A program made the position numbers and the translations under genes. A stretch of DNA of 64,000 nt, taken from an uncultured Candidatus Saccharibacteria bacterium. GTDB taxonomy: Bacteria > Patescibacteriota > Minisyncoccia > UBA6257 > UBA11618. The stretch covers positions 18,052-82,051 of the forward strand of contig CAYICS010000001.1 in NCBI GenBank assembly GCA_964362125.1, in the 5' to 3' direction. The notes beneath the pieces were generated by a model. It did not search any database. It had not been told where the DNA came from and worked only from the letters and a program-made list of their open reading frames with translations. Of the stretch, positions 14,554 through 63,532 are shown piece by piece. How positions within the stretch are numbered: position 1 is the first letter of the stretch; each line of letters starts with the position of its first letter.

Positions 14554-14830
14554 ATGTACTAAGCCATAAGCCATAAGCCGTAAGCCATAAATCCTAAACT
14601 CTAAATCCTAAACAAATGACAATCATCCAAACTACAAATTCTAAACCCGAGTTTGGGATTTATGATTTAGATATTAGAATTTGTTTAGAGATTACCTGCC
14701 CGCCATCGGCCTGAGCCGAAGGCACTGGCAGGCGGGGAGATTAGAGCTTAGAGCTTTATAAATACCCTACCCCCTAAACGCTAAACCCTAAACGCTAAAC
14801 CCTAAACCCTAAACCCTAAACCACATACCC
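14554..14830. repeat. Heptamer-periodic spacer between virB3-like and virB4: (TAAGCCA)4, (TAAATCC/TAAACTC), ... (CCCTAAA/CGCTAAA)7, with an embedded 44-nt GC-rich hairpin element
   Basis: 7-bp register maintained. The telomere-like CCCTAAA run at 14786-14825 is the reverse complement of the 7965-8000 run. Confidence 0.8.
14694..14738. repeat. 42-44-nt GC-rich palindromic element, copy 1 (cctgcccgccatcggcctgagccgaaggcactggcaggcgggg), flanked by gagatta direct repeats
   Basis: Near-identical copy at 48027-48068 (2 substitutions plus a compensatory change in the inner stem). Confidence 0.7.
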
Positions 14831-19872: not shown

Positions 19873-20309
19873 AGCAGTGGTTTCACCACCACACTCCGTT
19901 CTGACCTTTCGCCGGCGCTTTCGGTAGTGACATCGGGTCTGGTGGCTAATTCAGTGTGGATAAGACGGCGCTCGTAAGCATTCATTGCCGGCAACTTGAC
20001 CTCGGTTCTGGTCAGCATCACTTTTCGGGCGGCGGCCCGGGCCAGATCAATAATAATCCGCTCCCGCTCCCGGCGGTAATTGTTGATATCAATAAAAACA
20101 TTCTGCTCTAAACCCTGCTTCCTGCCCGCCAACCGCGCCAAATGAGTCAGGTCACCAATCAGCTTGGGCACCCAGTCTCTGAACCAGTCGCCTTCATTAA
20201 TAAAAATCGCCAAGCGCCGGCTCTCTTTTTCCAAATCAACTTTAAAATCACGAAAACCGGCCAGTGCCAACATCTTTTGAATTGCTTCTTGAATCTGTTC
20301 CATAGCCAT
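19869..20309 (-). CDS. jag: Jag/KhpB RNA-binding protein (KH plus R3H domains)
   Basis: R3H motif MNAYERRLIHTELA; located downstream of yidC as in most bacteria. Confidence 0.7.
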   Translation of the reverse strand: MAMEQIQEAIQKMLALAGFRDFKVDLEKESRRLAIFINEGDWFRDWVPKLIGDLTHLARLAGRKQGLEQNVFIDINNYRRERERIIIDLARAAARKVMLTRTEVKLPAMNAYERRLIHTELATRPDVTTESAGERSERSVVVKPLL

Positions 20310-20934
20310 AAACTATTTTATTGATATACAACTGCTGGCCGATCGAGAATAAGGTGGTGGTTAACCAGTAGAAACCGACAGCTGAAGGCAGGTAGGCAAG
20401 AATAGTCAATGTCAAAACCGGACCGATAAAAACCATATTTTTAGCCATTGGATCAGCCTTTTGTTTGGGGAGACTCAACCGGCCCTGAAAATACTGAGCC
20501 ACAACCGACAAAACCACTACCATTATACTGGTTTCTTTTAAATCTATCAAGCCCAGCGACCAACTGTTTAAATCCGGCGGCGGCTGTAAGAAAACCCGGT
20601 AGAGGGCGATGAGAATCGGCAGTTGAATTAAAAGCAAAAGAAAGGTGGTGAGGGGATTGATTTGGTGACGGCGATAAAGCTCCAGCATAGCCTGGGCCTG
20701 CTTCTCCCGATTGTCTTTATGTTGGTTTTGGATTTTTTCTAACTCCGGCCGCAGTTTCTGGAGGGCGGCCTGACTCTTAAAACTTTTATAAAAAAGCGGG
20801 AAGAGCACAATTCTCACAACCAAGGTTAATAAAATAATCGCCACCCCCAAGTCCTGGAAGGCCAGATTATTATAAAGCCAAACTAAAAGATAAAATAACG
20901 GCTCAACTAGGATTTTGTGAAATAAACCACTCAT
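20248..20934 (-). CDS. yidC: membrane protein insertase YidC/Oxa1 (short form)
   Basis: LLVWLYNNL...VAIILLTLVVRIVLFPL...ELYRRHQINPL conserved YidC core; rnpA-yidC-jag synteny. Confidence 0.8.
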   Translation of the reverse strand: MSGLFHKILVEPLFYLLVWLYNNLAFQDLGVAIILLTLVVRIVLFPLFYKSFKSQAALQKLRPELEKIQNQHKDNREKQAQAMLELYRRHQINPLTTFLLLLIQLPILIALYRVFLQPPPDLNSWSLGLIDLKETSIMVVVLSVVAQYFQGRLSLPKQKADPMAKNMVFIGPVLTLTILAYLPSAVGFYWLTTTLFSIGQQLYINKIVYGYGTDSRSNSKDVGTGRFS

Positions 20935-21208
20935 TGATTTCTTTTTGACTTAAACGATCAGCCCTAGTCTGGGCAATAATGAGATAATCAGCCACCGGCC
21001 ACTGTTTTAATACTAACTCAGCAGCCTGAAATAACCTACGCCGCAGACGATTTCTCTCAACACTATTTTTAGCCGAGACGATGACGCTCAGGCGGCTAAA
21101 AGAGCGGGGGGAAGAGAAGATTTTGATGGTAAAATAAGGGCCGCGAACTACCCGGCCTTTTTGATGAGCAACTTCAAGGATGGGCAAACGAAATTTTTTA
21201 GACAACAT
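20903..21208 (-). CDS. rnpA: ribonuclease P protein component
   Basis: KKFRLP...RNRLRRRL motif; position between rpmH and yidC. Confidence 0.8.
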   Translation of the reverse strand: MLSKKFRLPILEVAHQKGRVVRGPYFTIKIFSSPRSFSRLSVIVSAKNSVERNRLRRRLFQAAELVLKQWPVADYLIIAQTRADRLSQKEINEWFISQNPS

Positions 21209-21221
21209 TTTTTAGACAATA

Positions 21222-21356
21222 TTACAAAGCCAAACGATACCGGCCTTTACGGCGCCGCCTTCTTAAAACCCGCTGGCCGGTGCTTTTCCGCATTCTTTTA
21301 AGAAAGCCGTGACTGCGGCTTCTTTTTCTTTTACTGGGTTTAGTAATTCTAGTCAT
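21222..21356 (-). CDS. rpmH: 50S ribosomal protein L34
   Basis: Translates to MTRITKPSKRKRSRSHGFLKRMRKSTGQRVLRRRRRKGRYRLAL (44 aa). Absent from the ORF track because it is under 60 aa. Confidence 0.85.
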   Translation of the reverse strand: MTRITKPSKRKRSRSHGFLKRMRKSTGQRVLRRRRRKGRYRLAL

Positions 21357-21449
21357 AAAAACGAGCTTAGCAGGTTATCCCCAACTTATCAACATTTTTT
21401 CCCAACCTGTCACTCTTGACCAACTCTTAACCCCATCTAAAATGAACTT
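21357..21449. promoter_or_regulatory. dnaA upstream region with adjacent DnaA-box variants TTATCCCCA (21375-21383) and TTATCAACA (21386-21394)
   Basis: Each is one mismatch from the TTATCCACA consensus. Confidence 0.5.
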
Positions 21450-22811
21450 GTGGATCTTAATCAGCTTTGGCAAAAAGCGTTAGGTGAGATAGAACTGCAA
21501 ATTTCCCGACCAAATTTTGCCACCTGGTTAAAAAACAGCTCTATTATTGATCGACGGGAGGGAACGGTGGTTATTGGTCTGCCTAATAACTTCGCCAAAA
21601 CCTGGGTAGAAGACAAATATCATAAAATTATCTTGGGGACCTTGAGGAATTTAGATGAAAATATCCGCCGGGTAGAGTTCATCCTCATCACCAGCCAAGT
21701 CCAACCAATGATTATCAGTCAAAAATTTAATATTGAAACCGGTCCCCAATTGGCTTTTAACGAATTAAATATCGACCCCAGCACCAATCTGAATCCCCGT
21801 TATAATCTCCAGTCGTTTATTGTTGGCTCTTCCAATGAAATGGCCTTTGCGGCGGTAACAGCAGTGATTAGGGAGGTGGGCAAGAAATACAACCCGCTTT
21901 TTATCTACGGCGGCGTGGGGGTAGGGAAGACTCATCTCATGCAGGGCCTAGGTAATGACATAGTGAAGGTTTATCAAGATAAGATAAAGGTGAAATACAT
22001 CTCATCGGAAAAATTCACCAATGAGGTGATTTGGGCGATTAAAAACAAAAGAATGGAGACAATGAAGGAAAAATACCGCACCGTCGATGTTTTGATTATT
22101 GATGATATTCAATTTATCGGCGGCAAGGCCAGTACCGAACAAGAATTCTTTCACACCTTTAACGCCCTTTATGAAATCAATAAACAAATAGTGATTTCCT
22201 CCGACCGCTCCCCCAAATTTATTCCTATTTTAGAGGATCGTTTGAAATCAAGATTTGAGGGAGGAATGGTGGTGGACGTCGGCTTTCCCGATTTTGAATT
22301 GAAGGTGGCGGTTTTAAAAGAAAAACTAACAGAGAGGGGGACGAGCCTCAATGAAGATGTGGTTAACACCATTGCCCATAAGGTGAAAAAGAGTTTTCGG
22401 GAGTTGGAAGGTATTCTTAATAGAATCCTTTTCTATCAACAAGTGAAAAATTTAGAAATTACCTCCCGGGTAGCGGAACAAATAATGAGTGAGGTGGTAA
22501 AAACCCCCCAACGAAACATCAGTCCGGATTTTATCATCAAAACCGTGGCCGATTATTTCGAAATCTCTGTGGCTGATTTAATCGGCCACTCCCGCAAACG
22601 ACAGGTGGTGGAGCCAAGGCAAATTTCCATTTACCTCTTGCGCGATCTCCTTGATTTGTCGTATCCCTTTATTGGGGAGAAGCTGGGGAAACGTGATCAC
22701 ACCACCATTCTCTACGCTTACGACAAAATGTCCCAAGAATCAGTTAAAAACCAAATTCTTAATCAAAAAATAATGATGATTAAAGATATTTTGGAAAAGT
22801 CTTATATATAA
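21450..22811 (+). CDS. dnaA: chromosomal replication initiator protein DnaA
   Basis: AAA+ Walker A GGVGVGKTHLMQ, box VII, C-terminal DNA-binding helix-turn-helix (HTTILYAYDKM). Confidence 0.9.
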   Translation: MDLNQLWQKALGEIELQISRPNFATWLKNSSIIDRREGTVVIGLPNNFAKTWVEDKYHKIILGTLRNLDENIRRVEFILITSQVQPMIISQKFNIETGPQLAFNELNIDPSTNLNPRYNLQSFIVGSSNEMAFAAVTAVIREVGKKYNPLFIYGGVGVGKTHLMQGLGNDIVKVYQDKIKVKYISSEKFTNEVIWAIKNKRMETMKEKYRTVDVLIIDDIQFIGGKASTEQEFFHTFNALYEINKQIVISSDRSPKFIPILEDRLKSRFEGGMVVDVGFPDFELKVAVLKEKLTERGTSLNEDVVNTIAHKVKKSFRELEGILNRILFYQQVKNLEITSRVAEQIMSEVVKTPQRNISPDFIIKTVADYFEISVADLIGHSRKRQVVEPRQISIYLLRDLLDLSYPFIGEKLGKRDHTTILYAYDKMSQESVKNQILNQKIMMIKDILEKSYI

Positions 22812-22988
22812 CTTAATAAAACTTAATAAAATGTGAATAAAAACTATAACCCACAACCTATAACATAAAGATTATAATTACTTACCCAATTTATCCCCAA
22901 GTTTAAAAATTAAAAAAGCTGAAAAATATAAGAAAAAATAACTTATCAACAAATTCAAGTACTACTACTACGACTACTAATTAAATAT
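22812..22988. promoter_or_regulatory. candidate oriC: AT-rich dnaA-dnaN spacer with DnaA-box-like 9-mers
   Basis: TGTGAATAA (22832-22840), TAACCCACA (~22848), TTATCCCCA (22891-22899), TTATCAACA (22943-22951); AT-rich tracts; gene-strand switch at rpmH|dnaA. Confidence 0.55.
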
Positions 22989-24101
22989 ATGAAAGTAATA
23001 TTGTTTAAAGAAAATTTAAAAAATGGTTTAATGGTGGCGGAGAAGGCTGTGGCCGAAAATGCCAACCTCCCCATTCTTAAAAATATTTTACTAAAAACCA
23101 CTGATAATAAAATTCAGATTGTCAGCACCAATCTTGAATTAGCTATTACCAAATTAATTTCCGGAAAAATTATTGAAAATGGCTCTCTTACCATTCCCTT
23201 TAACACTTTTTATAATATTGTTAATAACACCACTCACGATCGCATTAACTTAGAAAAAAACAATAACAATTTTATTTTTAAAACCGATAACTACCAAGCT
23301 AAAATTCAAGGGGTGGCCGAGGATGAATTTCCCATCATTCCCAAATTAGAAAACACCGATCACTACCTGGAGATGGATCCGGTAATTTTTAAGGACGCTC
23401 TTAGTCGGGTGATTCATGCCGCTCAAATTTCGGAAATCAGACCAGAAATCAGCGGTATCCTCTTCGATTTTCAGATGACCATTTTGAAACTAGTGGCCAC
23501 TGATAGTTTTCGTTTGGCGGAGAAAACTTTAAATAGCAGCCAGTTTAAACATAATCTCACTAAAAATTTTCGGGTGATTGTCCCTCTCAAAACTGTTCAG
23601 GAGTTGGTGCGGGTTTTTCCCAACGACCAAAATATCAAAATTTATCTTGATAGCAACCAAATCCTTTTTCGCAACAATGATATTGAGGTTATTTCCCGGC
23701 TCATTGATGGCACCTATCCCGATTATGAACCAATTCTTCCCAAAGATATTGAGACAGAATTGCTGGTTAATCGTGATCATTTCATTAACGCCATTCGTTT
23801 GGTTAATAATTTTAGCGGTAAAACCAACGATATCCGGTTGGCAGTTAGAGACGATCAAAAGGTTTTGGATGTCTATTCTGTTAATCAGTTTTTGGGAGAA
23901 AATAACTATCTCATTCCCACTAAAACCACCGGCAGTAATTTCCAGGACACCGCCTTTAATTGGCGCTACCTCCTCGATGGTCTGAGGGCGATTGGTGAAG
24001 AAAATGTTTTCTTTGGGGTGAATGGTAATAATCGGCCGGCCATTCTTAAACCAATTGAGGACAAAAGTTTCTTTTATGTCTTAATGCCCATTAGGACTTA
24101 G
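22989..24101 (+). CDS. dnaN: DNA polymerase III beta subunit (sliding clamp)
   Basis: Three-domain clamp; N-terminus MKVILFKENLKNGL...; immediately downstream of dnaA. Confidence 0.85.
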   Translation: MKVILFKENLKNGLMVAEKAVAENANLPILKNILLKTTDNKIQIVSTNLELAITKLISGKIIENGSLTIPFNTFYNIVNNTTHDRINLEKNNNNFIFKTDNYQAKIQGVAEDEFPIIPKLENTDHYLEMDPVIFKDALSRVIHAAQISEIRPEISGILFDFQMTILKLVATDSFRLAEKTLNSSQFKHNLTKNFRVIVPLKTVQELVRVFPNDQNIKIYLDSNQILFRNNDIEVISRLIDGTYPDYEPILPKDIETELLVNRDHFINAIRLVNNFSGKTNDIRLAVRDDQKVLDVYSVNQFLGENNYLIPTKTTGSNFQDTAFNWRYLLDGLRAIGEENVFFGVNGNNRPAILKPIEDKSFFYVLMPIRT

Positions 24102-32451: not shown

Positions 32452-33324
32452 GTGAAAACCCTCCTTTTAATAGATGCTCACGCTCTGATTTATCGTTTTT
32501 TTCATGCCTTGCCGGCTCTAACCACGCCCGACAACCAGCCCATCGGCGCTGTTTATGGTTTAGCCAATGTCATTTTAAAAATCCTCCGCGAGCATCAACC
32601 TGATTATCTGGCCGCCTGTTTTGACCGGCCGGAAGAGACTTTTCGGCGAAAAGAATATGCGCAATACAAAGCCACCCGGCAGGCGCCGCCTGATGAGCTG
32701 ATCTCCCAATTTAAGATCAGCCGTGAGCTTTTGGATAAATTCCAGATTCGGGTGGTGGAGATGCCGGGCTTTGAAGCTGATGATTTAATCGGCACTTTGG
32801 CGGAGAAATTTAAAAAGGAACCCAATCTGAAAATTGTGATATTTTCCGGCGACCTCGATCTTCTGCAGTTGGTGGAAAACGATAAAGTAGTGGTGGAATT
32901 TCTCAAAACCGGCATCAGCGACACCATGACCTATGATGAAAAAGCCGTGGCAGCCCGCTATGATTTAAGGCCTGAACAACTGCCCGATCTCAAGGGTTTA
33001 TTGGGCGATGTTTCTGATAATATTCCCGGGGTAAAGGGAGTGGGGCCGAAAACCGCAGGCCCCTTGATTAAAAAATACGGCACGCTGGAAAATCTTTTTG
33101 AAAATCTTTGGCAGGTGTCGGATAAAATTGGTCTGAAATTAACTGATAAAAAAGAGGAGGCGTTGTTTTCTAAAAAACTGGCCACTATTAAAAGAGATGT
33201 GCCGCTGTTTGTCCAGTCGCTTAATGACTTGAAATTAGAAGCGATTGATAGGGGTGGTTTAGTTAAATATTTCGAAAATTTGGGATTTATCAGTTTGATA
33301 AAAAGATTGAACTCAACTAATTAA
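32452..33324 (+). CDS. polA: DNA polymerase I 5'-3' exonuclease (FEN) domain as a stand-alone ORF
   Basis: LLLIDAHALIYRFFHA, GFEADDLIGT, helix-hairpin-helix GVKGVGPKTA motifs of Pol I 5'-nuclease; stop at 33322-33324. Confidence 0.8.
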   Translation: MKTLLLIDAHALIYRFFHALPALTTPDNQPIGAVYGLANVILKILREHQPDYLAACFDRPEETFRRKEYAQYKATRQAPPDELISQFKISRELLDKFQIRVVEMPGFEADDLIGTLAEKFKKEPNLKIVIFSGDLDLLQLVENDKVVVEFLKTGISDTMTYDEKAVAARYDLRPEQLPDLKGLLGDVSDNIPGVKGVGPKTAGPLIKKYGTLENLFENLWQVSDKIGLKLTDKKEEALFSKKLATIKRDVPLFVQSLNDLKLEAIDRGGLVKYFENLGFISLIKRLNSTN

Positions 33325-33345
33325 ACGATCGTCTAATTAGTTGAG
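33309..33345. repeat. palindromic element centred on CGATCG (actcaactaatta-aacgatcgtc-taattagttgagt) overlapping the 5'-nuclease stop codon
   Basis: Perfect 13-bp arms; related CGATCG-core palindromes at 40113, 47552 and 63441. Confidence 0.6.
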
Positions 33346-33398
33346 TAGTTGAGTAATAGTAAGTAATAGTAAAATAATTAGGTAACTAGGCTTCTAGT

Positions 33399-33442
33399 AA
33401 AAATAAAAAACCCCGGGTCGCGGCTCGATAGCCGCGCCCGGG
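33399..33442 (-). terminator. intrinsic terminator for the antisense small gene (ccccgggtcgcggct / agccgcgcccggg stem, then a T-run on the minus strand)
   Basis: Hairpin at 33411-33442 preceded on the plus strand by AAAAATAAAAAA. Confidence 0.55.
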
Positions 33443-33463
33443 ACCGCCGGTGGTCGTCCCGCA

Positions 33464-33670
33464 TCAGGCGCCCCATTTTCTTTTTGTAGGGGCTTCTGCT
33501 TGCAAAAAATCTGCAATCCGGAAGGCCGCTGGGTTGTTATCGGCGATCAATTCCACCGATTCAAAATCCCAATGACCTTCTTTCTCTTCACTTCGACTTA
33601 CATAAACAGTCATTTTGCCCTTTTCCCCGGGCACAGCCGTCAGGATTCTAAGAATCACTGGCGTGTTCAT
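33464..33670 (-). CDS. hypothetical small protein (68 aa) encoded antisense between the two polA halves
   Basis: ORF with its own terminator; no homology recognised. Confidence 0.3.
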   Translation of the reverse strand: MNTPVILRILTAVPGEKGKMTVYVSRSEEKEGHWDFESVELIADNNPAAFRIADFLQAEAPTKRKWGA

Positions 33671-33741
33671 CTCTGTCCTCCAAAGAACTTTGATATCTTG
33701 CCGAAAGTTCCGAATTCCGGCATTATATTAAGACTAGCAAT

Positions 33742-34869
33742 ATGGTTAAAAGTTTGTCAATAGGCCCGGTTTTAGAGGCAATGCGCCGGCGTGGAATCTT
33801 GGTTGACCGCGAAAAGTTAAAAGTCAAAAGTGAAAAGTTAAGAAAAGAAATTAGGAAATTGGCGGCAGAAATTAAGAAATTAGCGGGCGAAGATTTTAAT
33901 CTCAATTCGCCCCGGCAGTTGTCGCGGATTCTTTTTGAGAAATTAAAGTTGGTTAAAGGCGGCCGCCGCACCAAAACCGGCCTCCGCTCCACCAGCGAGG
34001 CGGCTTTGGATAATTTGCGCGGCAGCCATCGGATTATTGACAAGATTCTCCAATACCGCGAGCAATTCAAACTACTTTCCACCTATCTTGAGCCGTGGCT
34101 GAAATATAGTCGGGCCAGCCGCGACGGCCGCATCCACCCCACTTTTCTTCAGGATGCCACCGCTACCGGCCGCCTCACTTGCCAAAATCCCAATCTGCAG
34201 AATGTCCCCTCACAATTACGTGAGGTTCTCGTGGCGGCTGCTGGCCACACTTTGATTTCTGTTGATTATTCCCAGATTGAACTGCGGGTGCTGGCTACTG
34301 TCACCAAAGACCCGGCTTTGCTTGAGGCCTTTGCCAAAGATTTGGATATTCACCAGCTGACAGCCAGTAAGGTTTTTAATGTACCACTGGAGAAGGTCAC
34401 TAAAGAGCAGCGCAATCTGGCCAAGACTTTAAACTTTGGCGTCATCTATGGAATGGGAGCAGCTGCCTTTGCCCGCGTCTCTGGCTTGAGTCGCAAAGAG
34501 GCCGAACAGTTTATCGAAGAGTATTTTCTGGAGTTTAAAAAGGTTCGGCAGTGGCAGGAGAAAGTAAAATGGGAATTGCAACAGAATGGTTATGTTGAGA
34601 ATTTAGAAGGCCAGCGGCGAGAGCTTGGCCCGGGAGAGGAACGAGCGGCTATCAATTTCCCTATTCAGAGTTTGGCAGCTCATATTATCAAGCTAGCGAT
34701 GATCAAAACCGCTAAATATCCTTTATTGCTTTCCATTCACGACCAATTGGTCTTTGAGATAGAAAAAGGTAAAATAAAAGGGAGCAGCGCCGCCATTAAA
34801 GAAATTATGGAATCAGTTTATAAACTGGCAGTGCCGCTCAAGGTTAATGTCACTTTGGGGAGTTGGTAA
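33742..34869 (+). CDS. polA: DNA polymerase I polymerase domain (no 3'-5' exonuclease domain) as a separate ORF
   Basis: Family A polymerase motifs: DYSQIELRVLA (motif A), RNLAKTLNFGVIYGMGA (motif B), SIHDQLVFE (motif C). Confidence 0.8.
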   Translation: MVKSLSIGPVLEAMRRRGILVDREKLKVKSEKLRKEIRKLAAEIKKLAGEDFNLNSPRQLSRILFEKLKLVKGGRRTKTGLRSTSEAALDNLRGSHRIIDKILQYREQFKLLSTYLEPWLKYSRASRDGRIHPTFLQDATATGRLTCQNPNLQNVPSQLREVLVAAAGHTLISVDYSQIELRVLATVTKDPALLEAFAKDLDIHQLTASKVFNVPLEKVTKEQRNLAKTLNFGVIYGMGAAAFARVSGLSRKEAEQFIEEYFLEFKKVRQWQEKVKWELQQNGYVENLEGQRRELGPGEERAAINFPIQSLAAHIIKLAMIKTAKYPLLLSIHDQLVFEIEKGKIKGSSAAIKEIMESVYKLAVPLKVNVTLGSW

Positions 34870-38925: not shown

Positions 38926-40740
38926 TTATACAATATCAGAAAGATGTGGTTCATGCAACTTCTTAATGATGGAGGCCGGGATGATGCCCAGCTTCTTGTT
39001 ATAGCGAGCCTGAATTTTTCGGCGCCGCTCAGTTTCAGTAATTGTTTTTTTAATGGAGTCAGTGAGGAAGTCGGCGTAGAGGATTACCTCGCCTTTGATG
39101 GAACGTGAAGCTCGGCCAGCCATTTGCATCAAACTGCGGTGATTGCGCAAAAAACCCTCTCGGTCCGCGTCAAGAATCGCAACCAGAGAAACTTCCGGCA
39201 GATCCAGCCCCTCCCGTAAAAGATTGATGCCCACCAACACATCGACATCGCCCCGCCGCAATTGATTGAGAATTTTCGGTCGCTGCAGAGTTTTGATTTC
39301 CGAGTGCATATAATTGGCGCGGATGCCCCGGGCCAAGAGAAATTCTGTGAGGTTTTCCGAGGCGCGTTTGGTGAGAGTGAGAGCCAGGACTCGTTCGTTG
39401 TTGCGGACACGCTTGGTGATTTCTTCAATCAGATTAGCTACTTGAGAAACCGCCGGCCGGACAATAATTTTTGGATCAAGGATGCCGGTGGGGCGAACCA
39501 ATTGTTCCGCCACCCGGCCGCGCTCTAATTCATATGACCCGGGAGTGGCCGAGACACAAATTGTCTGGCCAATGCGTTGGTTGAATTCTTTAAAAGCGAG
39601 CGGCCGGTTATCAAAGGCTGAAGGCAGACGAAAACCATAATTCACTAAAGTCTGCTTGCGGCGCCGGTCGCTTTCCTGCATCGCCCGCAGTTGAGGAATG
39701 GCAATGTGGGATTCGTCAATAAAGAGCAGAAAGGGGCGGGGGAAGTAGTCAAGTAATGTCAGCGGCGGCTCGCCGGGCTGGCGAAAATCTAAATGGCGGG
39801 AGTAATTTTCAATTCCGTGGACATAGCCTTTTTTCTTAAGCATCTGCAGATCAAAAAGAGTACGGCGTTCCAGCCGGTCGGCTTCTTCAAATTTGCCGGC
39901 GGCCTGCAGTTCGTCCATTCTCTCTTCCATTTCAGTCTTAATGTTGCGCAGAGAGAGATTAAAGAGATGCTGGGGAGTGACCCAAAACTTTGCTGGATAA
40001 ATATCCAGCAAAGTTTGACTTTTGACAGTTGACAATTGATCATTGACCAATTGAATTGTTTTAATTCTTCTTTTTTTGATCTCGATTTCTAGTTTTTCAT
40101 CGGTTACCAAATGTACTTTTACTAAAGTAATTCTACGATCGTGGAGATAGTTTAGTAGAGCGAATTGACCGAGCGCGGGTTCTTGGTTGGGGCGAGCTTT
40201 TTCATAACGGAGGAATTGCAGATGGCGCTCAATGTCTTTTTCGTTGATTATTTGCCCGACGCGCATTTTCAAGCGGGCTTTGCGATAGTTTTCCGGACTG
40301 CCGAGGCCGTAGATGCAGGAAACAGAAGCGATCACAATTGCATCCGGCCGCGACAAAACACTTTGAATGGCGGCGTGGCGCAGTTTATCAATATCCAGAT
40401 TAATCCGGGCGTCTTTTTGAATATAGGTTTGAGTCAGCGGTAGATAGGCCTCGGGTTGGTAGTAGTCGTAAAAAGAAACAAAATAGTGGACAGCATTGCT
40501 GGGGAAGAAGTTTTTGAATTCCTGATAGAGCTGGGCGGCGAGAGTCTTGTTGGGAGAAATGATCAGTGTTGGCAGGTCGGTTTTGGCAATCACCGAAGCC
40601 ATGGTGTAGGTTTTGCCTGATCCGGTGACGCCCAAAAGCACCTGGTCTTTCAGGTTTTCGTCGAGGCCGCCAATTAGCTTTTTAATAGCTTGAGGCTGGT
40701 CGCCTTTGGGCTGAAATTGAGAAATTAGATGGAAACTCAT
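38926..40740 (-). CDS. uvrB: excinuclease ABC subunit B (UvrB)
   Basis: Walker A GVTGSGKTYTMA, beta-hairpin region, DESH box (IDESHIAIPQ), helicase C motifs. Contains half of a CGATCG palindromic element in frame at ~40113-40140. Confidence 0.9.
   Translation of the reverse strand: MSFHLISQFQPKGDQPQAIKKLIGGLDENLKDQVLLGVTGSGKTYTMASVIAKTDLPTLIISPNKTLAAQLYQEFKNFFPSNAVHYFVSFYDYYQPEAYLPLTQTYIQKDARINLDIDKLRHAAIQSVLSRPDAIVIASVSCIYGLGSPENYRKARLKMRVGQIINEKDIERHLQFLRYEKARPNQEPALGQFALLNYLHDRRITLVKVHLVTDEKLEIEIKKRRIKTIQLVNDQLSTVKSQTLLDIYPAKFWVTPQHLFNLSLRNIKTEMEERMDELQAAGKFEEADRLERRTLFDLQMLKKKGYVHGIENYSRHLDFRQPGEPPLTLLDYFPRPFLLFIDESHIAIPQLRAMQESDRRRKQTLVNYGFRLPSAFDNRPLAFKEFNQRIGQTICVSATPGSYELERGRVAEQLVRPTGILDPKIIVRPAVSQVANLIEEITKRVRNNERVLALTLTKRASENLTEFLLARGIRANYMHSEIKTLQRPKILNQLRRGDVDVLVGINLLREGLDLPEVSLVAILDADREGFLRNHRSLMQMAGRASRSIKGEVILYADFLTDSIKKTITETERRRKIQARYNKKLGIIPASIIKKLHEPHLSDIV
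40113..40140. repeat. degenerate copy (left arm plus core) of the CGATCG-centred palindromic element (tactaaagtaattctacgatcgt), in frame inside uvrB
   Basis: 22-mer identical to the left half of the 63441-63478 palindrome; followed by tttagtagag as in the other copies. Confidence 0.6.
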
Positions 40741-46422: not shown

Positions 46423-47205
46423 ATGGGTCGCTTCATCCTGATAATTGTTTTGAGTCTGGTTTCTACTTTAGTTTTTACTTTCCGGGTGTTGGGGCAGGAA
46501 AGCGGCCCCAAGCGAACGCCGCCCCATCCAGATTATTTTTTTGAAAAGCTCGAGAAGATATTAGGTATCGCTTTCGAGAGGGGCCAAGTCTCCTACTTTT
46601 TTTATATCGATGATGAGGGCACAATTACCCATATTGAATATAATGATCTAGATTCGGAAATGAGATTTATAATGCCTTTGGAAACTTTTATAGAACGCCG
46701 CTTGTCAACTGAAGAAGATCGGGCAAGCTTCAGGCGGCTGCTTGGTCAATACCGGGACGCTGTTCGCTACCAGAATTTAGTTGAGGCTTATAATCAAGGG
46801 GGACAGCTGTTAAGGAATTTGCAAGGCAGATTAAAAAATATGAGGAAAATGATTATAAGAATTATCGGAATAGAAAATACAGAAAATCTTCAAGAATTAT
46901 TTGATTCGGCCAAGGTAGGTAATAAGGCTTTTGAGAAGTACTTGTCTAAACTGCTGAATCCTCGTACCGATGAGCCGTTGGCAGAGGAGGATAAACAGAG
47001 ACTGCGTGATTATTTTCGGATTTTAGAATTGGGAAATCAAATAGAGGCATCAAGACAGAAGCTCCTACCAAGAATTGACTGGTTAAGAGCAAGAATTCTG
47101 GGATTGCCGCCTCCGCCACCATCCAGAAATCAACCAGCTATTCCTCGACGTCGGCCGCCGAATCTGCCCGGTGGCGGTGGTGGTGGTATACCGAGATTAA
47201 GGTGA
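46423..47205 (+). CDS. hypothetical secreted coiled-coil protein with C-terminal PPNLPGGGGGGIPRLR tail
   Basis: Signal peptide; same unusual C-terminal motif as the 3294-3980 protein; its stop overlaps the start of the downstream Wzy_C-like gene. Confidence 0.4.
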   Translation: MGRFILIIVLSLVSTLVFTFRVLGQESGPKRTPPHPDYFFEKLEKILGIAFERGQVSYFFYIDDEGTITHIEYNDLDSEMRFIMPLETFIERRLSTEEDRASFRRLLGQYRDAVRYQNLVEAYNQGGQLLRNLQGRLKNMRKMIIRIIGIENTENLQELFDSAKVGNKAFEKYLSKLLNPRTDEPLAEEDKQRLRDYFRILELGNQIEASRQKLLPRIDWLRARILGLPPPPPSRNQPAIPRRRPPNLPGGGGGGIPRLR

Positions 47206-48299
47206 TTAAATTACTAGTCTGGATTGGCTTAGCAATTGTTATCGGATTATATATCAGGCCTAAGTGGATTTATGGTTTTTTGGCGATTGGGGGAGTGATT
47301 GAGGCGTTAATTGGTTTTGGCCAATTTCTTCAGCAGAAAAGTTTGGGCTTGCAATTTTTCGGCGAGCCGGTTTTAAGTCCGCTTAATCCAGATGTGGCGC
47401 GGATTTTTATTGACACCGGCGGCTGGCTTGCCAGCCGCGGCCTTGGCGAAGGCTGGGGGAGATTACTGCGCGCCTACGGCACCTTTCCTCACCCTAATAT
47501 CTTGGCGGCATTTCTTGTTCTCGCTATAATTTCTTTTAACTATCTATCTACTAAACTTATTCGACGATCGTCGAATAAGTTTAGTAGCGGTGGATTATTT
47601 TTTGGGACAGCAGGGATTTTTATTTTATGGCTTGGCCTGATTCTCACTTTTTCCCGCGCCGGCTGGCTGGCGGCTTTGATTATCACTTTGTTTTACCTGA
47701 TTGACCGCTGTCCGACAGTGGTCAGATGGCGGCTGGCTGCCATAGTTATTATCACAGTCATTGGTCTTGTTGTTATTTTCCATTGGGCTGTTTTGCCGCG
47801 GCTGGCTTTTACCGACAGTTTTGTTATTCAGGAAAGAATTAGTGATTACCAGCGCGCTTGGCAATTAATTAAAGAAAAGCCGTTCTTTGGTCATGGTTTG
47901 ACTTTGGCAATGGCAGAGAGGCCGATTCATAATTTGTATCTGACTATTGCTGTTGAAATTGGTCTTTTCGGTCTGGCGGTGTTTTTGGTTTTTGTGATTT
48001 TTACATTAATTGAAAATTGGAAATTGCCTGCCCGCCATCGGTCTGAGCCTCAGGCACTGGCAGGCGGGAAAATTGGAAATTCCCCAGCAGCAATAATGCT
48101 CGTGGCATTATTGCTGCTGGGTCTGTTTGATCATTTTCTCTGGACTTTGCGGCCGGGCTTGGCTATGCTGTGGTTGGTAATTGGATTGCTATGGCAGTCT
48201 GATCGCTCTCGTAGTTCAATGGATAGAATATCTCCCTCCGAAGGAGGTGATGCAGGTTCGATTCCTGCCGAGAGCACAAACAAAAATACGGATGTCTGA
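47202..48299 (+). CDS. O-antigen ligase/Wzy_C-family polytopic membrane protein; the 3' part of the ORF reads through two palindromic repeat elements and the tRNA-Arg gene
   Basis: Multiple TM helices; FSRAGWLAALIITLFYLI Wzy_C-type motif. The true stop is uncertain: the ORF covers 48205-48276, which folds as a canonical tRNA. Confidence 0.5.
   Translation: MIKLLVWIGLAIVIGLYIRPKWIYGFLAIGGVIEALIGFGQFLQQKSLGLQFFGEPVLSPLNPDVARIFIDTGGWLASRGLGEGWGRLLRAYGTFPHPNILAAFLVLAIISFNYLSTKLIRRSSNKFSSGGLFFGTAGIFILWLGLILTFSRAGWLAALIITLFYLIDRCPTVVRWRLAAIVIITVIGLVVIFHWAVLPRLAFTDSFVIQERISDYQRAWQLIKEKPFFGHGLTLAMAERPIHNLYLTIAVEIGLFGLAVFLVFVIFTLIENWKLPARHRSEPQALAGGKIGNSPAAIMLVALLLLGLFDHFLWTLRPGLAMLWLVIGLLWQSDRSRSSMDRISPSEGGDAGSIPAESTNKNTDV
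47552..47591. repeat. perfect 40-bp palindrome ctactaaacttattcgacgatcgtcgaataagtttagtag (CGATCG core), in frame inside the Wzy_C-like CDS
   Basis: Variant of the 63441-63478 palindrome with compensatory changes on both arms; encodes STKLIRRSSNKFSS. Confidence 0.8.
48027..48068. repeat. 42-nt GC-rich palindromic element, copy 2 (cctgcccgccatcggtctgagcctcaggcactggcaggcggg), in frame inside the CDS and flanked by a 13-bp direct repeat aaaattggaaatt
   Basis: Copy of 14694-14738; the flanking direct repeat resembles a target-site duplication. Confidence 0.7.
48205..48276 (+). tRNA. tRNA-Arg (anticodon CCG)
   Basis: Manual fold: acceptor gctctcg/cgagagc; D-arm gttc-aatggata-gaat; anticodon stem tctcc/ggagg with loop cTCCGaa; variable loop tgat; T-arm gcagg-TTCGATT-cctgc; discriminator A. 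No encoded CCA. Confidence 0.8.
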
Positions 48300-48318: not shown

Positions 48319-48475
48319 CTAGGAATCGAACGGAAAGGGGTCGGGAAACGGGAGTTTCCCGTGTCGGAAGGCAGCGACCCCGACCGCAGTCGGGGGAGTG
48401 CTGGGAAACCGAGGGTTTCCAGATGGTGAGATAGCGAAGCCCCGCAGGGCGGGGCGAGCGTCCTGCCGAGAGCGC
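48319..48475 (+). other. GC-rich multi-hairpin region ending in a degenerate copy of the tRNA-Arg 3' end (tcctgccgagagcgca); candidate ncRNA or integration-site remnant
   Basis: Stems gggaaa/tttccc, ctgggaaacc/ggtttccag, gccccgc/gcggggc. 14/17 match to the tRNA 3' end at 48456-48472. Confidence 0.25.
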
Positions 48476-48568
48476 ATAATATAAAAAAGCTTGACTTCTG
48501 GCTTAAATTATGCTATACTTATATATAGCAGTAGTTTTGACAGGAAACTCTTTTTGGAGGCTCTGAAG

Positions 48569-52680: not shown

Positions 52681-54432
52681 ATGGATAACAGCGAGATTGC
52701 TAAAATTTTGAGAGAGATTGCGGGATATCTGGAGATGCAGGAGGAGTTGGTGTTTAAGGTTAAGGCTTACGATAAAGCCGCCCAGACGATTGGTAGCTTG
52801 AAGGAACCGGTGGTCGATATTTACAGCCGGGGCGGCGTTAAAGCTCTGACAGAAATTCCGGGCGTGGGGCAGGGTATTGCCGAAAGAATTGAAGAACTGC
52901 TGAAAACCGGAAAATTAAAATACTACCAACAATTAAAAAAGAAAGCGCCAGTAGATTTATCAGAGCTGTTGGCAGTGGAGGGACTGGGGCCGAAGAATAT
53001 CAAAAAACTTTATCAAAAGCTGGGCATTACCAATCTTAGAGAGTTGGAGAGAAAAGCGCGCAAGGGCCGAATTCGCCAGCTTGAGGGTTTTGGTATAAAA
53101 AGCGAGCAGAAAATTTTGCGAGCTATTGAATTTTTAGAAAAATCCAGCGGCCGGTTTTTACTGGGCAGCATTATCTCGATTATCCGAGATATCGAGGCCA
53201 GGTTGAAGAAGCTGAGATTTGTAAAAAAAGTGGTGGTAGCCGGTTCTTTTCGACGGCGCAAGGAAACAATTGGTGATATTGATTGGTTGGTAACAGCCGC
53301 CTCGGAAAAAGATACTGAGAGGATCTCGGAGTTTTTTGTTAAACTGCCAGAGGTGAAAGCAGTGATAGCTCAAGGGCCTACCAAATCGATGGTGCGTCTA
53401 AAAAACGGTTTGGGTATGGATTTGCGGGTGGTGCCGGAAGAATCTTACGGCGCCGCTCTCAATTATTTTACTGGCTCCAAAGACCATAATGTGGCGATGA
53501 GGCAGATAGCCATTGAAAAAGGGATGAAACTCAACGAGTATGGTTTATTCAGGGGCAAACGCCGGGTAGCGGGAAAAACCGAGGCAGAAATTTATGAAAA
53601 ACTGGGCTTGCGCTATATCGAGCCGGAACTGCGGGAGATGACTGGGGAGATAGAAGCCGCTCGTGAAAATAAATTGCCTAATTTAATCGGATTTAAAGAT
53701 TTAAAAGGCGACCTGCAGGTGCAGACTAATTGGACTGACGGCGCCCATTCGATTGAGGCAATGGCTCAGGCGGCTGTGGCCGCCGGATTAGAGTATATTG
53801 CCATCACTGACCACACCAAGCGGCTGGCTATGACCGGCGGGCTAAATGAGAAACAAGTACTGAAGCAGGGAGAAGAAATAGATAGGATAAATTCCCGCCT
53901 TCGCCAAGGATTCGGCGGGCAAGCAAAATTCCGGATCCTGAAGGGCTCTGAATGCGACATTCTCAAAGACGGCTCAATGGATTTGGAGGATGAGGCGCTG
54001 GCCAAGTTGGATGTGGTGGGTGGCTCGATCCATTCTTATTTTAATTTACCTAAAGCCGAGCAGACCAAACGGCTTATCAGGGCAATGCGTAATCCGCATG
54101 TGGATATTATTTTTCACCCTAACGGCCGGATCATTAACCAGCGGCCGGCTTATGAATTGGATTGGGATGAGATTATTAAAGTGGCTAAAGAAACGGGGAC
54201 GGTGATAGAGATCAATGCCTATCCTGACCGCTTGGATATCTGGGACGAATTGATCCGCAAATGCGTTACAGCTGGCGTGAAAATGGCCATTGATTCTGAT
54301 GGTCACTCTCAGCATCACTTTTCTGTGTTAGAATACGGCATTGCGCAGGCCAGAAGGGGTTGGGCGAGTAAGAACGATATTATCAACGTCTGGCCCGTGG
54401 AAAAGATGCTAAAAATGCTGAAAAATCGGTGA
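52681..54432 (+). CDS. DNA polymerase X family protein with C-terminal PHP (3'-5' exonuclease) domain (PolX)
   Basis: HhH motifs (IPGVGQGIAERI, VEGLGPKNIKK); Pol beta-like nucleotidyltransferase GSFRRRKETIGDIDWLV; PHP motifs (HTKRL..., HPNGRI, DSDGHS). Contains an in-frame copy of the 17-mer atttaaagatttaaaag at 53693-53709. Confidence 0.8.
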   Translation: MDNSEIAKILREIAGYLEMQEELVFKVKAYDKAAQTIGSLKEPVVDIYSRGGVKALTEIPGVGQGIAERIEELLKTGKLKYYQQLKKKAPVDLSELLAVEGLGPKNIKKLYQKLGITNLRELERKARKGRIRQLEGFGIKSEQKILRAIEFLEKSSGRFLLGSIISIIRDIEARLKKLRFVKKVVVAGSFRRRKETIGDIDWLVTAASEKDTERISEFFVKLPEVKAVIAQGPTKSMVRLKNGLGMDLRVVPEESYGAALNYFTGSKDHNVAMRQIAIEKGMKLNEYGLFRGKRRVAGKTEAEIYEKLGLRYIEPELREMTGEIEAARENKLPNLIGFKDLKGDLQVQTNWTDGAHSIEAMAQAAVAAGLEYIAITDHTKRLAMTGGLNEKQVLKQGEEIDRINSRLRQGFGGQAKFRILKGSECDILKDGSMDLEDEALAKLDVVGGSIHSYFNLPKAEQTKRLIRAMRNPHVDIIFHPNGRIINQRPAYELDWDEIIKVAKETGTVIEINAYPDRLDIWDELIRKCVTAGVKMAIDSDGHSQHHFSVLEYGIAQARRGWASKNDIINVWPVEKMLKMLKNR

Positions 54433-59774: not shown

Positions 59775-59818
59775 CGCCCTCGTCTCCGATCCAGTCGGAG
59801 GCGGGGGCCTATTTTTTA
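59775..59818 (+). terminator. rho-independent terminator (gccctcgtctccga ... tcggaggcgggggc then T6)
   Basis: Stem with one mismatch followed by TATTTTTT. Confidence 0.5.
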
Positions 59819-60589: not shown

Positions 60590-63431
60590 AGATTTTAACC
60601 TGCCCAAAGTTGAGGAAGAGGTTTTAAGTTTTTGGAGAAAAAATAGGGTGTTTGAAAAATCGCTTGCCCTTCGACAGGCTCAGGGCAAAAAACACTACGT
60701 GTTTTTTGAAGGCCCGCCCACGGCCAATGCCAAGCCGGGGATTCATCATGTTCTGGCAAGGGTTTTCAAGGATATAATTCTTCGCTATAAAACGATGAGC
60801 GGTTTTTTTGTGGCGCGCCGCGCCGGCTGGGACACCCATGGCTTGCCGGTGGAAATTGAGATTGAAAAGAAACTGGGTTTTAAAAACAAACAGGATATTG
60901 AAAAATACGGCATTACCAAGTTCAATAAACTGGCGCGAGAGTCGGTCTGGCAATATAAAAAAGATTGGGAGGATTTAACCGAGCGCATCGGCTTTTGGCT
61001 GGATTTGGAACACCCTTATATCACTTACGAAAATCAATACATCGAAAAGCTCTGGGGGATTTTTAAAGAGATTGATAAGCGGGGATTGCTTTATAAAAGC
61101 CATAAGGTGGTGCCGTGGTGCAGCCGTTGCGGCACGGCTTTGTCTTCGCATGAATTGGCGCAAGGGTATGAAGAAACAAAAGACCTGGCGGTCTTTGTTA
61201 AATTTCCAATATCCAATTCCCAATTTCCAAAAACTTATATTTTTTCTTGGACGACGACGCCCTGGACTTTGCCGGGGAATGTGGCCTTGGCCATAAATCC
61301 GAAGCATAAATTTGTGAAGGTTCCTGATCCAGAGGAAAAGGGAAGTTGGTTAATTTTGGAAAAAGAAAGCGTCCACCGTCTCTGGCCCAAAATCGCTTCT
61401 TCGCAAGAAGCGATTATTGGGGTAAAAGAGTTGCTGGGATTAGAGTACGAGCCGTTGTTCAAAATCCCCGCCCTTCAATCCCCCACTTCTTATAAAATTT
61501 ATCCGGCGGATTTTGTGACAGCCGATGAAGGCACGGGCGTGGTCCATACAGCCGTGATGTATGGAGAAGATGACTATGAGTTGGGCAAAAAAGTCGGCTT
61601 GCCGCAATTTCATACTGTTGATGAGCAGGGCCGGTTCATTAAAGAGGTACCGGTTGTCGGGGGAATGTATGTGAAGGCGCCGGAGACGGAAAAGAAAATT
61701 ATTGAACACCTTAAAGCCCAGAGCTTATTGCTTAAGGTCGAACCATACACTCACGATTACCCTTTCTGTTGGCGCTGCGGCACACCCGTGCTTTATTATG
61801 CTCGCGATTCCTGGTTTATCGCGATGAGCAAATTACGCAAGGAGTTGCAGGCGGCCAATAAAAAAATCAACTGGATTCCCGGACATTTGCGCGAGGGTCG
61901 ATTTGGTGAATGGTTGAAAGAAGTGAAAGACTGGGCGATCTCGCGAGAACGATATTGGGCGACCCCGCTGCCAATTTGGATTTGTGTAAAATGTGACAAT
62001 AAAGTTGTAATAAGTAGTAGTAAAGAGATTGAGGAACGCGGCGGCAAGCCGCCCAAAGATTTACACCGTCCGTATATTGATGATGTTGTTTTGAAATGCC
62101 CGGAATGCGGCGGAGAAATGCGGCGGGTAAAAGAAGTGATGGATGTTTGGTTTGATTCGGGAGCAATGCCTTTTGCCAGCGGCGAATATCCGGAAAGATA
62201 TCCAGCTGATTATATTTGTGAAGCTATCGATCAAACCCGCGGCTGGTTTTATACGCTTTTGGCCGTCGGCGTTTTAATGAAAAAAGGGACGCCTTATAAA
62301 AATGTTATTTCTCTTGGGCATGTGCTTGATAAGCAGGGCCGGAAGATGTCTAAGTCGTTGGGCAACACCGTTGATCCTTGGCAGATGATTAATAAATACG
62401 GCATTGATGTTGTCCGTTGGTATTTCTACACCATCAACCCACCGGGGGAGCCAAAAAGATTTGATGAAGGAGATCTAAATTTGGTTTATAGAAGATTTCA
62501 TTCTTTGGTTTACAATTCTTATCTATTTTGGGCGTCTTATAGTATCGATGCTAATCTACGAATGAATGCGAATGATACGAATAGCAATGCGAATGTTTTA
62601 GATCGCTGGATTCTAGCGCGGCTTAACGAGACGACGGCCAAAGTTACAGAGCGGCTTGATGATTATGACATTGGTACAGCGGCTAAGGCGATTGAGCTGC
62701 TGGTAGATGATTTATCCCATTGGTATATTCGCCGCTCGCGGAGGCGACCGGAAGCATTGCCAGTGTTGGGCTATGTTTTACTGGAAATCAGCAAGCTGAT
62801 CGCTCCCTTTACGCCGTTTTTTGCCGAAGCATTATTTCAGTCTCTAAACCCTAAACCCTACACCCTAAACCCTTCTATTCACTTGACCGATTGGCCCAAG
62901 GCCGACAAAAAGCTGATTGATAAAAAACTGCTTGGTCAAATGGCCCAAATCCGGCAGTGGACCAGCCAGGCGTTAGCGGCGCGAGCAGAAGCCGGCATTA
63001 AGGTTCGTCAGCCGCTAGCTAAATTAAAAATTTCCGCCCGAGGCGGATCCCATGCCTACCGGCAGGCAGGCGTCTCTGGCGGAAAAAATGAAAAATTAAA
63101 AATTAATGAGGAGTTATTGAATATCTTAAAAGACGAAGTAAATGTAAAAGAAATTGTTTTTGACAATAAGATCAAAAATGAGATTGAGCTGGATATAAAA
63201 ATCACTCCCGAACTCCGTCAAGAGGGAATTTATCGAGAGCTGGTGCGGCTGATTCAGGATTTCCGCAAAGAGAAAAAACTAAAGCCGCAGGATAAGATTA
63301 AACTGCGCGCTGAATTGCCGGAAGATATGTTAGAAGTGGCGCAAAAGAATGATGAGCAACTACGAAAAGAAGTTAATGCTATTAAAATAGATTATAAGAA
63401 GGCTGGTAAGGTTGACTTAGAGTTGACTTAG
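60573..63431 (+). CDS. ileS: isoleucyl-tRNA synthetase
   Basis: HIGH-type motif PPTANAKPGIHH; KMSKS; CP1 editing domain; C-terminal zinc-binding region. Contains an in-frame CCCTAAA run at 62844-62872. Confidence 0.9.
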   Translation: MLKINKDFNLPKVEEEVLSFWRKNRVFEKSLALRQAQGKKHYVFFEGPPTANAKPGIHHVLARVFKDIILRYKTMSGFFVARRAGWDTHGLPVEIEIEKKLGFKNKQDIEKYGITKFNKLARESVWQYKKDWEDLTERIGFWLDLEHPYITYENQYIEKLWGIFKEIDKRGLLYKSHKVVPWCSRCGTALSSHELAQGYEETKDLAVFVKFPISNSQFPKTYIFSWTTTPWTLPGNVALAINPKHKFVKVPDPEEKGSWLILEKESVHRLWPKIASSQEAIIGVKELLGLEYEPLFKIPALQSPTSYKIYPADFVTADEGTGVVHTAVMYGEDDYELGKKVGLPQFHTVDEQGRFIKEVPVVGGMYVKAPETEKKIIEHLKAQSLLLKVEPYTHDYPFCWRCGTPVLYYARDSWFIAMSKLRKELQAANKKINWIPGHLREGRFGEWLKEVKDWAISRERYWATPLPIWICVKCDNKVVISSSKEIEERGGKPPKDLHRPYIDDVVLKCPECGGEMRRVKEVMDVWFDSGAMPFASGEYPERYPADYICEAIDQTRGWFYTLLAVGVLMKKGTPYKNVISLGHVLDKQGRKMSKSLGNTVDPWQMINKYGIDVVRWYFYTINPPGEPKRFDEGDLNLVYRRFHSLVYNSYLFWASYSIDANLRMNANDTNSNANVLDRWILARLNETTAKVTERLDDYDIGTAAKAIELLVDDLSHWYIRRSRRRPEALPVLGYVLLEISKLIAPFTPFFAEALFQSLNPKPYTLNPSIHLTDWPKADKKLIDKKLLGQMAQIRQWTSQALAARAEAGIKVRQPLAKLKISARGGSHAYRQAGVSGGKNEKLKINEELLNILKDEVNVKEIVFDNKIKNEIELDIKITPELRQEGIYRELVRLIQDFRKEKKLKPQDKIKLRAELPEDMLEVAQKNDEQLRKEVNAIKIDYKKAGKVDLELT

Positions 63432-63440
63432 ATTTGTTGT

Positions 63441-63478
63441 AAGCTTTGCTATTAAATTACTAAAGTAATTCTACGATC
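63441..63478. repeat. perfect 38-bp palindrome tactaaagtaattctacgatcgtagaattactttagta (CGATCG core) between convergent ileS and trpS, followed by tagtaga-type heptamers
   Basis: Direct reading; same family as the 47552 and 40113 copies. Confidence 0.8.
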
Positions 63479-63532
63479 GTAGAATTACTTTAGTAGATTA
63501 GTAGAGATTAGTAGAGTATAGTAGAGTAGTTT

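Follow-up and report, generated by a model that had tools for sequence, protein, structure and literature searches.

The window analysed here, a stretch of 64,000 nt (64 kb), comes from a Patescibacteria (CPR) MAG representing an ultra-small groundwater-type bacterium, and it contains two copies of a GC-rich 42-mer. Our preferred explanation, held with moderate confidence, is that the 42-mer is a very small non-autonomous GC-rich palindromic insertion element, that it forms a dispersed family in some Patescibacteria, and that it is moved as a folded strand by an enzyme acting in trans. The element is inserted as exactly 42 nt without a target-site duplication. Its insertion sites are far from random, being tandem arrays of heptamers or other short repeats and the tips of larger hairpins, and the data support a discrete unit that has been mobile recently.

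The 42-nt element in the window

The pattern CCTGCCCGCCATCGGYCTGAGCCNNAGGCACTGGCAGGCGGG has exactly two exact matches in the 64-kb window, both on the + strand, and gave no match in 100 dinucleotide-preserving shuffles. Copy 1 is located at 14695-14736 (+; 42 nt, GCCGA subfamily; 68 bits with the covariance model) and copy 2 at 48027-48068 (+; 42 nt, GCCTC subfamily; 63.5 bits). Both copies had been recognised in an earlier, sequence-only reading of this DNA, which placed the first at 14694-14738. The copies are identical at 39 of 42 bases and differ by C16T, G24T and A25C. An unfiltered covariance model search detected no third copy in the 64 kb; the density of the element is thus low, about 2 per 64 kb. 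A role as DNA uptake sequence was rejected on account of this density, approximately 1 per 30 kb. Chance similarity or an assembly artefact deserves practically no credence, as the low copy number in the window is all that speaks for it, whereas no chance matches are expected and the unit is present in independent ENA, JGI, NCBI and Logan assemblies.

The element forms a discrete unit, sharply delimited by its ends CCTGCCCGCC ... GGCAGGCGGG. It starts with CCTG and ends with CGGG, the reverse strand starting with CCCG. The G+C content is 74-76%, as compared to about 30% in the 40-nt flanks, in agreement with the sharp contrast to AT-rich surroundings described previously. The length of the element corresponds to 14 codons, and five of the six reading frames are free of stops.

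The termini of the element are imperfect 10-nt inverted repeats with eight Watson-Crick pairs, one G.T wobble and one C.A mismatch. Using RNA parameters, the fold energies are -24.7 kcal/mol for copy 1 and -23.7 kcal/mol for copy 2 (z -2.9 and -2.8, respectively). Using DNA parameters, z is -2.3 for copy 1 and -0.6 for copy 2, i.e. the fold of copy 2 is unexceptional. The hairpin is better than expected from composition by a moderate margin only. The inner stem is UCGGC/GCCGA in copy 1 and GUCUGA/UCAGGC in copy 2, and complementarity of the ctgag/ctcag kind is found in copy 2 only. As the copies use different inner stems, the three differences switch stems and preserve none. The proposal that a paired change keeps an inner ctgag/ctcag stem must therefore be abandoned; the changes are not compensatory.

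At the gathering threshold, Rfam identified only a tmRNA and one tRNA in the window and no family for the element, and permissive Rfam scans over two copies gave chance-level matches only. Small self-cleaving ribozymes and riboswitches were rejected, as there is no Rfam signal and genic copies occur in both orientations.

Copy 1 is located in a heptamer-rich spacer between a PrgI-like gene and a VirB4/TraG-like gene. On its 3' side is a GAGATTA/GAGCTTA heptamer array (14737-14756, +), with a lag-7 periodicity reached by 1.0% of control positions, and a further GAGATTA unit is found on its 5' side (14688-14694), so that gagatta is present on both sides of the copy. We counted approximately 30 period-7 tandem arrays in the window, in spacers and in genes, with diverse units (CCCTAAA, TAAGCCA, GAGCTTA, TGAATTA and others). 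These arrays resemble the heptamer repeats of heterocystous cyanobacteria.

Several other features of the window should be noted. The region 20248-24101 is likely the replication origin region, with yidC and rnpA on the negative strand, dnaA (21450) and dnaN (22989); the cumulative GC skew has its minimum at approximately 22-24 kb, where the skew changes sign. The two copies of the element are on opposite replichores and on the same strand. DNA polymerase I is apparently split into a 5'-3' exonuclease ORF (32452-33324) and a PolA domain ORF (33742-34869), and the gap between them (region 32452-34869) consists of about 420 nt of hairpins and heptamer repeats.

Other hairpins are dispersed as well. 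An AT-rich palindrome of approximately 40 nt, centred on CGATCG, is found beside TAGTAGA heptamers at 63457-63498 and 40118-40159 in the window and at 9455-9497 in locus L008; a diverged copy lies inside the uvrB ORF, and the palindrome is shared with a Hainich contig and thus represents another dispersed family. Arrays of (AAAAATT)n and (GGAAATT)n contain inserted 15-nt mini-hairpins, TCCGCC...GGCGGA, in doubled or nested form (window 63033-63083; L009 5068-5097); those of L009 are separated from the 42-mer by one heptamer. A T run follows a GC-rich, terminator-like hairpin that has G.U pairs on the + strand and is found at 59776-59816 in the window and at 1881-1921 in L002. The two sequences are 95% identical, and the one in L002, a Hainich contig, directly adjoins a copy of the 42-mer.

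Insertion of exactly 42 nt in a Wzy_C gene without target-site duplication

Copy 2 is located in an ORF (47202-48299, +) encoding an O-antigen-ligase-like (Wzy_C) membrane protein (Pfam E=8e-17; 202 homologues). All named homologues are from Patescibacteria/Parcubacteria MAGs. The copy encodes residues 276-289 (PARHRSEPQALAGG), in frame and just past the Wzy_C domain; the earlier placement of the element in frame within a Wzy_C-like ORF is thereby confirmed, and the ORF truly belongs to this family. The last approximately 30 codons of the ORF read through a tRNA-Arg gene and are probably non-native. This gene, tRNA-Arg(CCG) at 48205-48277, is a conserved downstream neighbour through which the Wzy_C ORF merely runs.

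The element interrupts a (GRAAATT)n array. The left part of the array (GAAAATT GGAAATT G; 48008-48026, +) has period 7 and codes for ENWKL, and the right part (AAAATT GGAAATT; 48069-48081, +) had been regarded as a target-site duplication. The lag-7 periodicity at this array is reached by 1.8% of control positions, and aaaattggaaatt flanks the copy on both sides. P0002, which is the nearest orthologue and shows 67% identity in the alignment, has the protein sequence TLIENWKL-EIENWPAIIM, with exactly 14 residues missing, and the insert is likewise absent from 23 further homologues.

An empty-site allele, for which a search had been recommended, was found in the orthologue L018. Here the heptamer array is uninterrupted, TTGAAAATTGGAAATT GGAAATTGAAAATTGG, whereas the window has TTGAAAATTGGAAATTG, the 42 nt and AAAATTGGAAATTCC at the same site. 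There are four GRAAATT heptamers in each, and the alleles differ by the bare 42 nt. Since the empty allele has the same four heptamers and an exact 42-nt gap, the flanking repeats are not target-site duplications. The direct repeats that had suggested such duplications are real, but they belong to a heptamer array that already exists in the empty L018, which is precisely the alternative that the sequence-only reading had set against its own proposal. The length of the loop is similar to that in distant homologues without heptamers, indicating that the array is a native loop and not a duplication.

Another orthologue, L019, carries a different GC hairpin of 33 nt, CCGCCTTTGGCGAGCCTCGCCCCGATGGGCGGG, after the same ATTG and in the same heptamer register, which makes this protein loop a true hot spot. 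The earlier view of the Wzy_C ORF as a local hot spot for insertions is upheld for the loop, but not for the tRNA and the CGATCG palindrome as insertions: the tRNA is the conserved neighbour mentioned above, and CGATCG sites are not enriched in the window (13 found, 10.5 expected).

Translational bypass of copy 2, as known from T4 gene 60 or from mitochondrial byp elements, was considered and rejected. The frame continues through the element into the conserved DHFLWTLRPG, and a hop between the flanking TTG codons would meet a stop.

The ORF and its surroundings harbor further structured sequences. Directly 3' of the interrupted array, the coding sequence forms a hairpin of 17 bp without mismatch (48083-48121, +; DNA fold -21.2 kcal/mol, z=-11). 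It falls in the sequence coding for a transmembrane helix, and in L018 the hairpin is conserved but built from a different sequence. The ORF has a second, double hairpin, which is GC-rich (47410-47463) and encodes GWLASRGLGEGWG, a segment missing from most homologues; related GCCTTGGCGAAGGC palindromes occur at 3221-3253 and 53888-53926 in the window, and also in L016. Following the tRNA-Arg gene and a terminator-like hairpin is a GC-rich stretch of approximately 160 nt (48322-48482, +) with several predicted hairpins. A counterpart with 87% identity exists in another species (L005 5742-5900, -). No Rfam family matched, and we regard the stretch as a candidate conserved non-coding RNA.

Copies in other genomes and variation between strains

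The strict pattern gave a single match among 185,579 species genomes (GTDB), locus L001. The MAG in question is titled 'uncultured Pseudomonadales', and its sequence looks CPR-like. A metagenome search gave 16 loci, seven of them from the Hainich groundwater well H51 (0.1 um fraction); the pattern used fixed the outer 28 nt, and conservation of the outer stem is thus not an independent result. One more diverged copy was found with a covariance model at L006 3510-3551. A search of a phage collection gave no match. Many further copies are thus present in related uncultured genomes, and the reservation that only two might exist no longer applies.

The same 42-mer can be found between flanks that are unrelated. 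One sequence is common to L002, L004 and L005 and another to L008, L009 and L016, and within each set identity extends from one end of the element exactly to the other. The L001 variant is similar to copy 1 and that of L008, L009 and L016 to copy 2. They represent two subfamilies, GCCGA and GCCTC, that exist side by side in single genomes and co-occur in the window and in Hainich contigs. The first pair of the inner stem is U:A, G:C or A:U in different copies. Covariation of the inner stem is weak and not significant, the observed score being reached by 38 of 500 shuffles.

Long open frames contain 9 of 20 copies. Six of these are in sense orientation, with all three frames used, and three are antisense. 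The genes hit include those for TsaD (L005), MnmA (L009) and PheS (L006; antisense copy), and relative to the solved structures of MnmA and TsaD the element falls in insertions. The short length, 14 codons, and the five stop-free frames explain how the element survives in frame in protein loops, including those of essential proteins.

The copy in L001 is found at the tip of a candidate hairpin RNA of approximately 115 nt (1296-1424, -; -61 kcal/mol, z -5.1) with a TTGACA-17-TATAAA promoter and a T-run terminator. The candidate matches no Rfam family, and no homologue of this host RNA was found in the sequence set examined. The promoter and terminal T run of this hairpin, the z of approximately -2.9 obtained with RNA parameters, the alternative base pairs at the first inner-stem position and the location of copy 1 in an operon spacer would all be in line with a functional cis-element under selection, be it an RNA hairpin acting as stabiliser or terminator, a protein-binding site or a small-RNA domain. 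We nevertheless consider such a function decidedly unlikely as the explanation of the family: copies reside inside unrelated genes, in all frames and in both orientations, their presence varies among near-identical strains, and neither a matching Rfam family nor a homologue of the L001 host RNA in that set was found. A secondary, co-opted role of the element is possible.

Spread via an RNA intermediate, by reverse transcription or a process resembling reverse splicing as once proposed for the small dispersed repeats (SDRs) of Nostoc, is disfavoured by the antisense genic copies. Three of these are well supported, the one in pheS among them. The ends of the element are also fixed, with no poly-A and no variable truncation, and no reverse transcriptase was found among the approximately 50 ORFs scanned in the window. 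We therefore judge this route very improbable, even if RNA parameters favour the fold more than DNA parameters do, the L001 copy is possibly transcribed, and the element is similar to the SDRs, which also sit in heptamer arrays. The idea of a structured RNA copied by a template-driven mechanism likewise gained no direct support, given that no Rfam family matched, that no reverse transcriptase was found in the window and that antisense copies occur in genes.

Two kinds of site recur. Flanks with lag-7 periodicity, at a level reached by at most 2% of control positions, are found at 4 of 18 copies, and L009 is a fifth such copy once the neighbouring 30-nt double mini-hairpin is discounted. Strongly complementary flanks, placing the element at the tip of a larger hairpin, are also found at 4 of 18 copies, at a level reached by at most 1% of controls. 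The flanking repeats differ in length (7, 13 and 9 nt) and are always part of tandem arrays. ATTG or ATTA precedes eight insertions of the element and two other hairpin families, seven of which are the element itself; the other 11 copies of the element lack ATTR, and we found no conserved target motif before the element.

Nested arrangements were observed as well. Comparison of L003 with L014 revealed an 81-nt unit that contains the element and itself lies inside a larger inverted-repeat element with the ends CGTCATTGCGA...TCGCAATGACG. In relatives with the same termini, copies are nested in the loops of other copies (L024/L032 and L025). They came from a looser scan of viral contigs, which retrieved the same 10-nt termini around interiors of 7-28 nt, along with chance matches in GC-rich contigs. 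No inverted pairs of the element were seen in the covariance model scans.

The presence of the element differs between near-identical strains, and its turnover is thus recent. The pheS gene of L006 contains the element, and those of L037 and L038 do not. Over approximately 2.5 kb on each side, the identity of L006 amounts to 99.9% and 99.2% with L037 and to 99.8% and 99.5% with L038. At one and the same codon position, however, the cassettes of the three strains are unrelated: 12-nt repeats and the element in L006 (3487-3601), ACACGAAT-type repeats in L037 (1018-1063) and (AAAATCA)n in L038 (2486-2558). L039, which is 83% identical, has no pheS cassette (about position 2485). A cluster of SNPs surrounds the cassette of L038. 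These observations point to hypervariable loop cassettes in the essential gene pheS.

The TsaD orthologue L036 also lacks the element. It (232-1245) differs from L005 (234-1421) mainly by in-frame cassettes, and in orthologous loops the heptamer units are AAAGCTA in L005 and GTCAAAG in L036, or CCCTAAA and GTCAAAT, respectively. The tsaD of L005 also holds a block of approximately 90 nt of nested GC hairpins.

The exchange of loops bears on an explanation that dispenses with dedicated machinery. The hairpin could have been spread passively by homologous recombination, gene conversion or polymerase template switching, with the tandem repeats serving as homology and whole cassettes being exchanged. 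Whole loop cassettes are indeed swapped between strains that are 99.5-99.9% identical, the SNP cluster around the L038 cassette is as expected of an imported patch, orthologous loops contain different heptamer units, and five copies are found in the same kind of (GRAAATT)n array and in the same register. We still regard passive spread as unlikely. The identical 42-mers of L002, L004 and L005 are located in flanks without shared homology, the window allele is distinguished from that of L018 by nothing but the 42 nt, and copies also occur in plain coding sequence and at hairpin tips without repeats.

Mechanism, related elements and significance

Based on these observations, we suggest that the element is probably transferred as a folded strand by a structure-specific enzyme acting in trans. 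In brief, an enzyme whose gene lies elsewhere in the genome would recognise the unit in the form of a folded single strand, and would cut and join it at the foot of the stem, following the logic of REP/RAYT elements and the 'peel and paste' of IS200/IS605. Repeat arrays and palindromes would be preferred because single strands are presumably exposed there. Both copies in the window are most simply seen as passive passengers, although copy 1 may contribute an RNA hairpin to the transcript of a type-IV-secretion operon, and copy 2 would add a loop of 14 residues, rich in Pro, Ala, Gly and Arg, to the Wzy_C protein.

A Pfam scan of the approximately 50 ORFs in the window gave no transposase, HUH, integrase, reverse transcriptase or PF01797-type match. 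The scanned ORFs neighbouring copies of the element encode type-IV-secretion, DNA repair and housekeeping functions. A rough tblastn search for Y1 transposases, using approximate queries over 328 kb of genome fragments, gave no match either.

Among the known systems we consider the element closest to the intragenic REP and RPE elements and to the small dispersed repeats of Nostoc. REPs and REPINs with their RAYTs, intragenic REPs and the Rickettsia elements RPE-4 and RPE-6 include in-frame copies in known genes, often DNA repair genes (PMC3116915, PMC3733652). The element has in common with these that both are GC-rich imperfect palindromes of 20-40 bp in dispersed families, with several types per genome and some copies in frame in genes, and that mobilisation in trans, as single-strand hairpins, is presumed. 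The palindrome of REPs, 20-40 bp long, carries on one side an unpaired tetranucleotide, either GTAG or CGTC (PMC3733652). The element lacks this tag, the unpaired tetranucleotide on its reverse strand being CCCG. Its copy number is also low, no inverted doublets were seen, no RAYT was found with approximate queries over the 328 kb, and approximately half of its copies (9 of 20) are genic, whereas REPs are mostly extragenic.

SDRs are 21-27 nt long and essentially confined to one cyanobacterial group. Eight of them, SDR1-8, were reportedly described from Nostoc punctiforme and relatives by Elhai et al. in 2008, in Genome Res 18:1484. Both families are tiny, dispersed, hairpin-forming units, often located in tandem heptamer arrays, with nested copies and evidence of recent mobility; both genomes are rich in period-7 repeats, with approximately 30 arrays in the window. 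The element differs in its length (40-42 nt) and in its Patescibacteria host. Frequent in-frame residence in essential genes is, to our knowledge, not a feature of SDRs.

The likeness to other systems is more limited. Palindrome-associated elements derived from IS200/IS605 have one hairpin at the left end and another at the right, and their insertion takes place 3' of a fixed sequence of four or five nucleotides. They share with the element the insertion without duplication and the presumed dependence on hairpins and preference for single-stranded DNA, but the element consists of one hairpin, and no fixed target was apparent. The mobile GC clusters of yeast mitochondrial genomes show short target repeats, and 'byp' elements are skipped by ribosomes. 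Here the likeness lies in short GC-rich palindromes that enter coding regions of AT-rich genomes and in length polymorphisms beside AT-rich repeats. Those systems are, however, organellar, whereas the element keeps the frame and the downstream DHFLWTLRPG is read.

The sequence-only reading had proposed a MITE-like mobile micro-element. The element is indeed dispersed and apparently mobile and resembles MITEs in being non-autonomous and in having inverted-repeat ends, a stable fold and both filled and empty sites. Defining traits of MITEs are missing nonetheless, as it makes no target-site duplication and is only 42 nt long, and no parent IS with matching ends was found in the window or the loci. 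MITEs are usually 100-400 bp (PMC3184786). Our literature searches gave no description of heptamer repeats or of MITE-like elements in Patescibacteria.

We also considered a broader reading, in which the heptamer arrays, the 42-mer and its sister hairpins of high GC content are joint traces of an active, still undescribed process in Patescibacteria. Over the time in which strains diverge, this process would rewrite short cassettes at hot spots with a fixed position, some located in the spacers between genes and others in surface loops encoded by essential genes (pheS, tsaD, mnmA, wzy). This is speculative and, taken as a whole, unlikely. If true, it would represent a new kind of system for writing or inserting repeats and hairpins, as opposed to a REP-like parasite of the ordinary sort.

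The genomes of Patescibacteria are tiny and streamlined and are regarded as poor in selfish DNA. The 42-nt unit is among the smallest discrete insertion units described, and it resides in spacers and in essential genes with the frame kept. It helps to account for the unexplained extra loops in CPR proteins; such inserts are translated filler and not conserved domains, and they are therefore relevant to annotation and structure prediction. It also provides a marker for strain-level dynamics in groundwater communities. After Nostoc, this is a second and phylogenetically remote system that bears on the joint origin of heptamer arrays and mini-hairpins and on the enzyme moving such minimal DNA. 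The hypervariable repeat-and-hairpin cassettes in essential genes form the wider context of the element and are the part most worth pursuing.
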